Below, one piece after another: positions 621-60,881 of a DNA stretch of 64,000 nt. The stretch is from Eledone cirrhosa (lineage: Eukaryota): NCBI GenBank assembly GCA_964016885.1, contig OZ024742.1, positions 177,320,001-177,384,000 of the forward strand, in the 5' to 3' direction. The first letter of the stretch is position 1, and every line of letters begins with the position of its first letter. Below the pieces are notes generated by a model that did no database searches, had not been told where the DNA came from, and worked only from the letters and a program-made list of their open reading frames with translations. The position numbers were made by a program, and so were the translations under genes.

Positions 621-819
621 ACTAAGGAATTGTGGTAAGGATCCAGATGGACCACAGCGCACCAGAGTACTCAATAATTAGGGTTGTAGAGTGGGAAATA
701 GGAAAAAGTATGACCCCGACGGCAGAGCTCAAGCCGTTTCGACGGCTATTTCTGGACGCGTCCAGAAAAAGCCGTCGAAACGGCTTGAGCTCTGCCGTCG
801 GGGTCATACTTTTTCCTAT
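621..819 (-). mobile_element. Small PLE-type 3'-end insertion in (TA)n with a 122-bp fold-back palindrome (698-819)
   Basis: 698-819 is self-complementary about ACG|CGT (758/759) with one mismatch. 621-697 is a unique tail similar to the reverse complement of 22536-22615. (TA)n on both sides. Confidence 0.7.
712..762 (-). ncRNA. 3' half of a type I hammerhead ribozyme (CUGANGA half lost at the fold-back)
   Basis: Minus strand: GACG..CGUC (possible stem II), GAA, ACGGC-UUGAGCUCU-GCCGU (stem III), C17 (GUC triplet), then GGGGUC. No upstream CUGANGA. Confidence 0.55.
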
Positions 820-2262
820 ATATATATATATATATATGTACATATATATATGTACATATATATATATGTACATATATATGTACATATATATACATATATA
901 TGTACATACACATATATAAATATATATAGAAAGAGAAATATATGAAGACTGAGATATATAGAGAGAGATAGAAATACAAATTCACATTCAAGCTGCATGA
1001 AGCATACAAAAATGCCTCTGCTTCATTATATATATATATGTGTCTGTGTGTGTTTGCGCGTGCGTGTGGGTGTGTGCATGGGTGTTTATACGTGTGTGTG
1101 TGTTTGTATATATGGTCGGATAGTTGTGTAGTTCTCCAACTCTTACCATAAAAAAAAACCTAATGTCAAATGTAATGAGTTATTGAGAAATGGAGGCACT
1201 TGTTTGAGATTTTTCCTGATTCCATGTGACTTATGATATTTATGGAAATCAATCTCAGTATATCTCTTGCTATATCAACCTATTTACTGTCTATATATCT
1301 ATTTATATACCTCTTTCGATATATATTTTAGTTACTTCGTGTTGATTCATCGTTGATCAATTTCGACCGACTATTGTAGAACATAATCTGAAAACCAGCA
1401 GCTCGATATATCATTAACATTATACAATCAGATGTTATCTAACGAAATCGTATATGTACTAATTACATCTAGTGTACAATTACGCAACAACACGCAGATG
1501 CCATTAAAATATGTATCACAGCTTTTTGTATAATATATTTAATGTAGGGAAGTAAAACTTTATTGCCTCTTACTTCCTTATTATATATATATATATATAT
1601 ATATATATATATATATATATATATGGGGGGAGTGTGTGTGCGTGTGTGTGGGGGTGTATATATATATATATATATATATATGAGTGTGTTTGTATTTTCC
1701 ATTGTTGCAGCTTCGTATAAATTGTGATTATTTATTTGATGACCACTTTTGTGATAATACATATATACACCTACAATATATGTGTGTATGACTTCATGAT
1801 ACTTACGTGTAGCTTTCAAAATATTTACTTCATCAACAAAATGTCGGCATAGAAATGCTGAATGCTGAGAAAGGCAGAATTCCATGAAAAGCCGAATTGT
1901 ATGAGAACAGTAGCACATTCAGGAATAATTCTTTGAATAGCACTTTTCATTTACAGTTTAATTATTGGTTCCATTCACATTATCACGCAGCATGTGCATG
2001 TTCACTGCAGATGTTTGAAACATTGAAACTGCATGTTTATTGTAACAATTTAGAGTAAATATTGCAGCTAGATAGAGCCTTATTCATAAAAACGTTCATA
2101 TATAATATAAAGTATGCCTATAAGTATACTTGAAGGCAGATTTCATGGATGTATGCTTGTATGTAGGTATTTATGTGTGGTGTGTCTGTATTTATGTGTG
2201 TATGAATATATGACGTATATATATATATATATATAGTTATATATAAGTGTGTGTGTGTGTGT

Positions 2263-2319
2263 GTAAGAGGTAAACAGAAATAACAACACAATCGGTACAG
2301 TATATGGAAAGGATATATA
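2263..2319 (-). mobile_element. 3'-terminal fragment of the HHR-bearing element family seen at 30387-30708
   Basis: TAAACAGAAATAACAACACAATCGGTACAGTATATGGAA is the reverse complement of the tail at ~30495-30533 and ~30665-30699. It abuts (TG)n. Confidence 0.75.
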
Positions 2320-58064: not shown

Positions 58065-58527
58065 AAGGGCGGTGGATTGGCAGAATCAGTAGAGCGTCCG
58101 ACACCATGCCTTGCAGCATAGAGTTATGGCCCTCTATAGTCTGAGTTCAAATCGCGCCGAGGTTAACTTTGCCTTTCATCCTTACGGAGTCGATGAAATA
58201 AAGTACCAGTAATGCACTAGGGTCGATTTAATCGATTTTCCCCTCCCTTACAATTGTTGGCCTTTTACCTAAATCAGAAACCATTATTATTATTATTATT
58301 AAGGGCAGTGGTTTGGCTGTATCGGTAGAGCGTCAGACACCATACGTTGCTGCATAGAGTTACTGCACTTTAGGGTCTGAGTTTAAATTCTAAAGGATAG
58401 CTCTGTTTTTCATCCTTACGAGGTCGATAAAATAAAGTACCAGTAATGCATTGAAGTCAATTTAATCGACTTTTCCCTGCCCCAATATTGCTGGCGGTGC
58501 GCCTAAATCAGAAAACATTATTATTAT
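58065..58527 (+). mobile_element. Two tandem tRNA-derived SINEs (58065-58300, 58301-58527), longer subfamily
   Basis: Each starts AAGGGC(G/A)GTGG, has a B-box (degenerate in the second) and a TCATCCTTACG..GTCGAT core, and ends AAATCAGAAA..(ATT)n. Confidence 0.88.
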
Positions 58528-60699
58528 TTTTGTTGTGGTCTCTGTTGTTGTTGTTGATGGCATTATTATTGCTGTTATTTTTGTTGCGAGTGGTGACGAT
58601 ATTGCGGTGCAGTTGCTATTGCTGTTTAATTTCCCGTGAGTTCTAAGGCAAGCAAATTCTGGTCAAATGAATTACAACAATGATATACTTGGAGATTTAG
58701 TAGCTATATTGGACTACATTATCGAATGTTCTAATATGGGTGCCTGTGCAGGAGTTGAGGGAAACTTGGCTGTCAATTCTAGCAAAAAGTAGGACAACGT
58801 CAAAACACCTTCATTTTTTTTCATAATTAACGTTAATTATTAAGAGGGATAAATTAGATGTTGCGAAAGAGAAACTATTTTGCGGTATTTATTTACTACC
58901 CTTCACATTCTGGGTTTAAATACCCGTAAGGTCAACTTCGCATTTTAACCTTTCTGTTATGCAATTGGTGGTGTCTGGTGCTTGGGATAGGAACAGGAAA
59001 TCATCACAGTGGAATGCAATTTGTCATTGTTGTTTTTAATCAAGTCTAGTCTAGAGCTAAATATTATCAACATCAATAACATTAACAACAGTGTTTTCCC
59101 CTCTATCTCGTGAATACTATATCTAATAGTGTGTTAGCTAAGAATATATGACTAGAGATACACATTTAAAACTAATAGCTATAGGTGAATAGCAATAGAA
59201 ACCAGTTATAAGATTAAATTAAGTCATTTAAATGTTTCTGAAGCACCTAGCGGCGTTAGTAGGTATTTATTTCAAAGAAACAATCATTATATACAAGTTC
59301 AAAAAGAAAATATATTAAATATATATATACATGTGTTTGCGTATATATATATATATATATATATATATATGCGTGTGTGTGTTTGTGTGTGTGTATATGT
59401 GTGTGTGCGTTTGTCTGTGTTTATATATACATATATATATATATATATAGATAGATAGATACATATATATATATGTGTGTGTATGTATATATATATTTAT
59501 GTGTGTGTGTATATATATATATATATATATATATATATATATATATGTGGGGGGTGGGAGTGTATGCGTGTGTGTATTTGTGAAAAGTTCATCTGAGTGA
59601 ATGTGTGTTTATATAAATATGTGCGGGGGGTTTGTTTCAATATTTAAATACTTTGTTAATCTGTCCCGTTGATCAAAGACAGAGTTTTTAATATGAAGTT
59701 AAGAATATCATTAAAATACCAATATCAATATATTGATGATCGAATTCACTAAATCAATGCTAATAAATAAGCTTTCATCTTTTATTATACTGAACTTATA
59801 AAACATACGTATGTTTCTTGAACATATATCCATGCACTAATATAACATTCATACACACAAACACACTCATATTCCCGATGATATACACGCATTTGTATTT
59901 GTTTTGTATCTCTCTCTCTCTCTATACATATATATATATATTAGTGTGTGTGTGTGTGAGTGTGTGGGTGTGTTGGGGGGGGGGCGTATTTTGTGTATGT
60001 GTAGGTATGCATGCCTACACGCACATATAAGTATATATGCTTTATATATTTATGCATATGTATATATATATATATATATATATATATATATATATATATA
60101 TATATTTATTAAAATTACAGATTATATATATATATATATGTGTGTGTGTGCGTGTGTGTGAGTGTGTGTGTATATATATATATATATTAACATATATGAA
60201 TAGTTATATATATATATGCATATATGAATAGATATAGATATATATATAGGTATATATATATATATATATATATATATATATATATATATACATATAAATA
60301 CATATATTATATATATATTATATATAGAAATATATATATATATATATATATACATATATATATATATATACATTCGAGTGTCTTTACGTAAGACCATCGT
60401 TGATTCTTTTGATTTTAAATGTGTGCGTCACGATATCTAATAATGGGATCAGGTATTCTTTGTTTTGTTTTTATTTTGTTTTTCTTGGAAACATCAAATT
60501 TAAAAGATGAGAGCACACCTCATAATCGAGAGATCATAAATATAACCTATGTGCGTTGCATCAGGTTCCATGTAACTGAAGAGATAATAACTTCGATTTT
60601 AACACGTCTACATACATGGAGAGAGAGGGGGGATACATATATATACACTTATATATATTTATGTATATATATATATATATATATATATATATATATATA

Positions 60700-60881
60700 C
60701 GTTATTCCGGGTTGAATCGGAGGTAACCACAGTAAGTAAGGTACTCAATACATTGCAGAGTATAAAAGTTTTAGTATAGATGAGATTCTACAGGACTAGA
60801 ACTGTTTCATTCTTTAGAAATCATCAGGAATCTGATGATTTCTAACGAATGAAACAGTTCTAGTCCTGTAGAATCTCATCT
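60700..60881 (-). mobile_element. Small PLE-type insertion with a 104-bp fold-back palindrome (60778-60881)
   Basis: 50-bp arms with a GAAT spacer and one mismatch. 78-nt unique tail containing GTACTCAATA; (TA)n flanks. Confidence 0.78.
60783..60833 (-). ncRNA. Complete type I hammerhead ribozyme
   Basis: AGAUUC-CUGAUGA-U-UUC(UAAA)GAA-U-GAA-ACAG(UUCUAGUC)CUGU-A-GAAUCU: perfect 6-bp stem I, 4-bp stem III, GUA triplet. Confidence 0.88.

Follow-up and report, generated by a model that had tools for sequence, protein, structure and literature searches.

Tailed head-to-head palindromes in (TA)n tracts of the Eledone cirrhosa genome, with a proposed origin in paired priming by Penelope-like elements

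A stretch of 64,000 nucleotides of the Eledone cirrhosa genome (assembly GCA_964016885.1, contig OZ024742.1, positions 177,320,001 to 177,384,000; hereafter the window, with positions counted from its first base) contains three short palindromes, each set in a (TA)n tract and each followed on one side by a tail outside the palindrome. The question raised by this locus is how such a structure is produced. The first-pass annotation read the three as traces of integration of Penelope-like elements (PLEs): reverse transcriptase (RT) would copy through an uncleaved hammerhead ribozyme and stop there, and the complementary DNA (cDNA) would prime itself on a micro-palindrome and be copied back. The connection to PLE integration is borne out by the parent elements, the fixed ends and the head-to-head units found genome-wide. 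For the origin of the fold-back we arrived at a different reading, which we consider rather probable: each palindrome is one PLE insertion in (TA)n, and its tailed and tail-less arms are likely two cDNAs. These would start on opposite target strands, each from its own fixed site on an RNA that is likely capped, and would be joined where the 5' end of that RNA is predicted.

The units are called E1 (621-819), E2 (22668-22900) and E3 (60701-60881), and positions within each family are numbered from +1, the A of an initiator-like word beside the apex. The palindromes and their tails of 77-85 nt are real, as an unbiased scan of the window recovered them where the first-pass annotation had placed them; they are its three top-scoring palindromes once microsatellites are set aside. 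The arms measure 61 nt in E1 (698-819), 74 nt in E2 (22752-22900) and 50 nt in E3 (60778-60881), with one mismatch in each. All three have the same order of parts, (TA)n, tail, arm, apex, arm, (TA)n, and the tails (621-697, 22667/8-22751 and 60700/1-60777) are flanked by (TA)n on one side and an arm on the other. In E1 the tail (621-697, minus strand) covers +62 to +138 and the tail-bearing arm (698-757, minus) +61 to +2, including the 3' half of a degenerate hammerhead-like fold; two non-genomic bases at 758-759 form the junction, a perfect palindrome with no loop, and the tail-less arm (760-819, plus) runs from +2 to +61. The E2 tail (22668-22751, minus) spans about +76 to +160, the tail-bearing arm (22752-22826, minus) runs from +75 to +1 with a minimal hammerhead-like motif of non-canonical core, and the tail-less arm (22827-22900, plus, +2 to +75) is joined bluntly. 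In E3 the tail (60701-60777, minus) covers about +57 to +133, the tail-bearing arm (60778-60833, minus, +56 to +1) holds a predicted canonical type I hammerhead with stem I from +1, and the tail-less arm (60832-60881, plus, +7 to +56) is joined through a 3-bp micro-palindrome. Each tail has (TA)n at its outer edge, and (TA)n follows each tail-less arm.

Genome searches with each unit showed that all three are multi-copy. In long copies of E1 and E2, the region upstream of the pseudo-long terminal repeat (pLTR) has RT-type (YRDD) and endonuclease-type features, as read from the motifs, and translations of their open reading frames (ORFs) contain RW(R), DKT, YRDD, CxCx5C, CxxC and CxH, with CCHH absent. 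Because these match the list given for the Hydra clade in section 11 of PMC8557442 (RW(K/R), DKT, a CxCx5C linker, no CCHH, CxxC, CxH and a (TA)n target), the E1 and E2 parents are, on their motifs, Hydra-type PLEs with a C-terminal endonuclease (EN+). Pfam and PDB searches with the E1 and E2 proteins gave no match, and for E3 neither an ORF nor a parent element came to light. The unit of E1 measures 3,108 nt, and its ATG lies at +231. A pLTR with an inverted, 5'-truncated copy, as in EN+ PLEs, was seen in four loci (L181, L188, L336 and L338). The tail end is followed by (TA)n in 92/95 E1, 76/83 E2 and 47/48 E3 sequence contexts, among which overlapping loci may repeat a copy. The earlier description of the three arms as unrelated in sequence goes too far, since the parents of E1 and E2 encode proteins with about 50% identity, and an 11-mer is common to the E1 and E3 tails.

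Exact head-to-head junction patterns were found 3,112 times in the genome for E1, 1,577 times for E2 and 4,211 times for E3, against 0 matches for each of the reversed-pattern controls in the same genome, so the palindromes of the window are not due to chance. Owing to exact matching these counts are lower bounds, at least 8,900 in total, which duplicated segments may inflate slightly. Queries ending at the apex were biased and were replaced by tail-only and junction-only sets of loci, of which the latter cannot reveal apex clustering, since the gap is limited by the pattern. Forty of the 50 listed E3 junctions were used; a pair of neighbouring junctions at C1:52.779 Mb and the final eight were left out. 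In raw Illumina reads from restriction site-associated DNA sequencing (RAD-seq, three runs), the native stretch of E1 showed opposite-strand joints at +4 to -1 and loose ends in (TA)n at about +61 and +138. In E3 the opposite-strand joints lay at +4, and loose ends in (TA)n were seen for each of the two classes of end. Thus the strand-switch joints are present in raw reads for the E1 and E3 families, in a check that applies to families and not to the single loci of the window, and in which RAD depth is biased by restriction sites.

That the copy ends at a fixed place, as first supposed, was confirmed. When E1 junctions are taken in genome order regardless of tail, short arms end at +60 to +62 in 41 of the first 50 and long arms at +138 in 37; kilobase-long inverted insertions have the same fixed outer ends. 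The tails follow an equally strict rule. At junction-picked loci, 47 of 50 E1 units have one tail and 3 have none, the corresponding figures being 49 and 1 (n=50) for E2 and 34 and 6 (n=40) for E3, and no unit in any family has two. Exactly one arm is tailed in 130/140 junctions, and some of the tail-less calls may represent diverged tails; the excess of one-tailed units over 50% is significant (binomial, p 4e-11 and 9e-14). The native E1 and E2 sequence at the outer ends has a few TA-type bases in common with the target, and the proposed priming sites that were checked show TA-type microhomology to it. For the purified PLE Poseidon PAc, PMC11167929 describes two internal starts that bound the tail, cutting and extension of both target strands, an uncleaved RNA and a predicted dimer. 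Since these starts are the two sites bounding the tail, the fixed end of the short arm is best read as a second RT priming site.

If both arms came from one cDNA, the tailed arm should contain everything that the tail-less arm contains. The tail-less arm reaches further 5' than the tailed arm in 23/47 E1, 15/49 E2 and 19/34 E3 small junctions; for E2 the arm comparison gave 12/22/15 (n=49) with full extension and 19/11/19 before it. Fifteen long insertions, picked by their tailed arm, could be resolved, two others being left out (L183, multi-piece; L337, end not found), while L082 and L087 turned out to lack the inversion. In 8 of the 15 the tail-less arm exceeds the tailed one by more than 30 nt, in 5 the tailed arm is the longer, and in 2 they are near-equal. 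In the eight, the tail-less arm holds from 34 nt to 2.9 kb that is absent from the tailed arm. Five of them differ by about 1.3-2.9 kb, with 5' reaches of the tail-less and tailed arm, respectively, of -3232 and -321 (L181), -2945 and -91 (L188), -2109 and -358 (L336), -2111 and -779 (L190) and about -3100 and -407 (L338); the remaining three are L078, L084 and L113. Fold-back of a tailed cDNA cannot yield such arms, because all tail-less sequence would have to be present in the tailed arm, and the reverse fold-back cannot supply the tail, so that two primings are needed at least in the long cases. The arms are nevertheless related. In gap-free loci (36/50 E1, 40/50 E2 and 31/40 E3), 30, 5 and 58 non-majority bases are common to both arms, against 5.0, 0.3 and 24.7 expected, and since minority variants are shared well above random pairing, both arms likely derive from one RNA or one source locus. 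Where the arms meet there is 0-3 nt of microhomology, or 7 nt in the case of one E2 hot spot, or else a short filler.

The position of the apex points to the start of an RNA. All three +1 sites are initiator-like words, and arm ends pile up there, with a rise in read depth at +1 of about 20-fold in E1 and 9-fold in E3 (RAD-seq bins of one run). In 7/7 long E3 copies, CCAAT and a TATA box, TATAAATA, lie about 30 nt upstream of +1. Arms that end exactly at +1 are preceded by a G in 23/30 E1 and 20/26 E2 cases, where the genomic base is T. With at least two filler bases, G stands before the arm in 16/20 cases at +1 against 5/36 at other ends (Fisher p 1.4e-6). By hand count, the E2 listing of 100 arm starts gave G 44, T 41, A 9 and C 6, with G on both arms in 20/50 loci, and the E1 G-listing had G on both arms in 34/66 loci; the bases preceding the extra G differ from locus to locus. 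A cap-derived extra G has been invoked at an L1 junction (PMC11702581), and the G found here is likely what would be expected when the end of a capped RNA is copied. Therefore +1 is likely the start of a capped sense RNA.

The hammerhead would be carried along in this RNA and appears not to set the apex. The apex was correctly placed by the first-pass annotation, on the 5' strand of stem I in E2 and E3 and inside an extended stem II in E1. Its supposed fixed position relative to the ribozyme did not hold, as it is found on the 5' side of the core, close by, in E2 and E3, and on the 3' side, about 45 nt away, in E1. In E3 the fold has a CUGANGA and GAAA core, three stems and a NUH site, with stem I beginning at +1. 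The core is canonical in 33/33 pattern-matched copies, among which the stem I pair is A-T in 24, C-G in 8 and A-A in 1. On a hand-drawn structure 92% of cells are paired, with one compensatory pair, a level reached by 30/500 shuffles; the pairs were counted on that structure, as RNAalifold did not recover the E3 fold. E2 has CAGAAGA in 49/50 copies and a fold like that of E3 with one core change, the E1 core is degenerate in 8/8 copies with +1 in the stem II extension, and Rfam searches with a native copy of each family gave no hammerhead family match. That the template was uncleaved, as first proposed, is well supported, because core and cleavage site are copied and read depth has no step up at the cleavage site. 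By the same lack of a step, cleaved RNA was ruled out as the template.

From these data the following course of insertion is proposed. A capped RNA would be started at +1 by the pLTR promoter, and the element protein, probably as a dimer, would cut both strands of (TA)n. One target 3' end would prime at a distal site (+138, +160 and +133 for E1, E2 and E3), and the other at a proximal site (+61, +75 and +56 to +68, respectively), so that the tail would be the distance from one site to the other. Both cDNAs would copy through the uncleaved ribozyme to the cap, often with a C added, or would halt earlier, and their 3' ends would then be joined by annealing, template jump or host end-joining. With both sites in the first 140-160 nt of the RNA, tiny palindromes would result; with the sites in the 3' pLTR, long inverted insertions. 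In a wider form, EN+ PLEs would integrate by obligate asymmetric double priming, in which a dimer uses two fixed sites on one capped sense RNA and the cDNA 3' ends are fused, often via a cap-derived C. This generalisation is tentative, and we lean slightly to the side of doubt.

Several observations weigh against the proposed course. In the E1 listing of 100 arm starts (hand count: T 66, C 15, G 13, A 6) C is as common as G, and genome-wide G stands at 430/1,974 E1 arm starts; the cap-G counts cover E1 and E2, since the E3 pattern admits no junction in which both arms are complete. Near -31 to -33, E1 and E2 offer only TATA-like words, and a better TATA of E1 lies at about -62. Among tail-picked copies, 17/30 E1, 7/30 E2 and 10/30 E3 start within -5 to +9, counts that include some aligner mis-calls and about 9 E3 loci that are duplicates of one insertion. 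Transcription start site (TSS) and cap, likely as they are, are read from DNA alone. Shared variants would also be expected from fold-back or gene conversion, self-priming of the tailed cDNA would also account for about a third of the E1 and half of the E2 small junctions, and small asymmetries at the apex could be explained as later deletions. Finally, the strict strand asymmetry is not explained by known biochemistry, because PAc in vitro uses the same start sites on both strands (PMC11167929).

The nearest alternative keeps a single cDNA, which would run from the distal site to the 5' end of the RNA and snap back, the copy being stopped or cut at the proximal site and the apex blurred by later deletions. 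It accounts for the one-tail rule and for the identity of the arms, as well as for micro-palindrome junctions such as that of E3 in the window and the E2 hot spot (12/50). Self-priming was itself proposed in PMC3846280, and resolution of the tail by the endonuclease in PMC8557442. At the window junctions, where micro-palindrome self-priming had been claimed, E3 agrees with it (3-bp micro-palindrome, 4-nt loop), and E1 and E2 do not, having room for loops of 2 and 1 nt. As a general route it is not supported, since self-priming of the tailed cDNA is geometrically compatible with only 16/47 E1 and 26/49 E2 small junctions and the tail-less arm is up to 2.9 kb longer in 8 of the 15 resolved long cases. 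Moreover, neither arm has room for a 3-nt hairpin loop in 10/50 E1 and 11/50 E2 junctions, and it is the tail-less arm that is complete in 7 of the 8 oriented loci with the most frequent E1 junction. We regard snap-back as unlikely to be the source of the palindromes in general; it may contribute in a minority such as the window E3. Two cDNAs could also have formed a head-to-head double-stranded DNA away from the chromosome, which GIY-YIG would cut at two element sites before integration in (TA)n. Independent 5' ends and fixed outer ends would follow from this too, and for D. virilis the endonuclease has been reported to require the tail for recognition (summarised in PMC11167929). However, TA-type microhomology with the target is present at those outer ends that were checked, as target priming predicts, the in vitro starts match the tail ends (PMC11167929), and no such intermediate was seen in this analysis, which makes this route quite unlikely.

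The remaining explanations concern the apex and the reality of the structures. A stall of RT at the structure of the uncleaved hammerhead, which the first-pass annotation held responsible for the apex, agrees with +1 being the first base of stem I in E2 and E3 and with the uncleaved site carried by the copies. By the time of such a stop, however, RT would already have passed stems III, II and the core; the apex of E1 lies within the stem II extension of a degenerate core, and a stall predicts neither the extra G that often precedes +1 in E1 and E2 nor a TATA box 30 nt upstream. With the apex at an initiator-like +1 in all three units, we consider the stall highly unlikely. A 3' splice site could give a similar picture, with a T-rich tract and YAG at -1 to +2 in E1, E2 and most E3 copies and junction bases from a short first exon, and in D. 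virilis the Penelope intron ends at the 5' end of helix I (PMC4209133). Yet the AG is kept in the arms and one long E3 copy has GAG at this place; a spliced first exon is disfavoured because the bases before the extra G vary between loci, leaving no constant exon 1, and we find this explanation very improbable. Fold-back chimeras are a known artefact, so that an origin in library preparation or assembly has to be considered, all the more as the read check is at family level. Against it stand thousands of loci with the same fixed ends yet differing junctions, arms that differ by 5-9% inside single loci, and strand-switch joints in the raw reads of three other runs, and we give it almost no credence.

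Paired priming, as favoured here, has relatives among known systems. In L1 twin priming the two cDNAs cover different parts of the RNA and the second site is not fixed. In the model for E1-E3, unlike this, one leader is copied twice, once from each of two fixed sites, and a palindrome results. Common to both are two target-primed cDNAs resolved by end-joining and the cap-derived extra G (PMC11702581). Published EN+ PLE units resemble E1-E3 in the head-to-head inverted, 5'-truncated copy, a one-sided tail (30-40 nt), junction palindromes, TATA and initiator (Inr)-like pLTR motifs, and AT-rich or (TA)n targets (PMC3846280, PMC8557442). Here the tails are 77-85 nt, the units shrink to about 200 bp, thousands of times, and a tail at one end is the rule where the published accounts call it "optional". 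PMC3846280 favoured self-priming at the inverted junctions, probably on an antisense template, whereas the extra G found here favours a sense, capped RNA. Poseidon PAc agrees with the model in its two tail-defining RT starts, use of both strands, uncleaved RNA and predicted dimer; its starts lie in the ORF, those of E1-E3 in the 5' leader, and the portions of that paper on which we draw report no strand difference in start site and do not treat the inverted junction or the cap. Compared with the Hydra clade as described in PMC8557442, the E1 and E2 hammerhead cores are non-canonical and the E1 unit is 3.1 kb. PLE hammerheads have been reported in PMC4209133, and for Penelope of D. virilis an internal promoter that lacks a TATA box in PMC2377424. 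Non-LTR retrozymes (bioRxiv 10.64898/2026.07.22.740005) are likewise short, PLE-derived and hammerhead-bearing, forming head-to-tail tandems where the window units are single head-to-head pairs. Searches of openly accessible full-text literature turned up no earlier account of a cap footprint where PLE copies meet in inverted orientation, of tails restricted strictly to one arm, or of an inversion arising from paired priming. Thus the architecture and the two start sites are already published, while the cap footprint and the one-tail rule appear new within the literature searched.

Other features of the window and of the three families were recorded. A head-to-head pair of another PLE family occupies 23776-26058, with a tail-less arm at 23776-24406 (minus), a tailed arm reaching 26018 (plus) and a 40-nt tail at 26019-26058; it contains a GIY-YIG 3' fragment at 24450-25226 (Pfam E 1.5e-4) and keeps the one-tail rule. 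A miniature fourth palindrome claimed at 22520-22549 fell outside the pattern. It is a gapped inverted piece of 11-12 nt on a 5'-truncated E1 relative (22520-22620, plus, 84% identical), without ribozyme, with its outer end at about +69 instead of +61, and absent from the list of the palindrome scan. This relative is abutted by a 175-nt repeat present in opposite orientation at 22335-22514 and 27024-27198 (93% identical). A short remnant about 80% like the E3 arm lies beside (TA)n at 32499-32545 (minus). Matches to hammerhead cores of other families were found at 20382-20448, 23349-23432 (minus) and 63619-63692, and two tandem copies of another hammerhead-core unit, about 153 nt apart, lie between TA/CA repeats at 30375-30715. 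In the E3 reads (L013:1483-1561), joints lead back 75-77 nt, from about +63 to about -14, which suggests a retrozyme-like head-to-tail tandem of the 76-nt E3 hammerhead unit. One E3 palindrome insertion recurs, together with its flanks, at several sites on C18, C25 and C28, which points to segmental duplication. Units of the three families often adjoin in one (TA)n tract (L009, L040, L042, L044, L047, L075, L185), which suggests that one target was hit more than once. Fragments of broken LINE-type ORFs with endonuclease-like and RT-like motifs (read from the motifs) lie at 32844-34659 (minus) and 35593-57777 (plus), the latter in several tandem copies. A weak Rfam match to U4 snRNA at 11570-11684 (39.1 bits, below the gathering score of 46) is possibly a pseudogene.

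The origin of PLE inverted repeats and tails is a matter for which an in vitro system was called for in PMC8557442, and the choice between sense and antisense template was left open in PMC3846280. The Eledone cirrhosa genome supplies at least 8,900 natural junctions that favour a sense, capped template and the paired use of two RT start sites, and from these, exact predictions follow for the PAc-type assay already at hand. The junctions also offer a route from DNA alone to infer PLE transcription starts, and the mini-palindromes supply the host genome with a large amount of short sequence able to form hairpins. If obligate double priming is true for EN+ PLEs, inverted pLTRs, one-sided tails and junction palindromes would be outputs of one mechanism, distinct from the target-primed reverse transcription of LINEs, and thousands of mini-palindromes would map the TSS and the RT start sites of each family.

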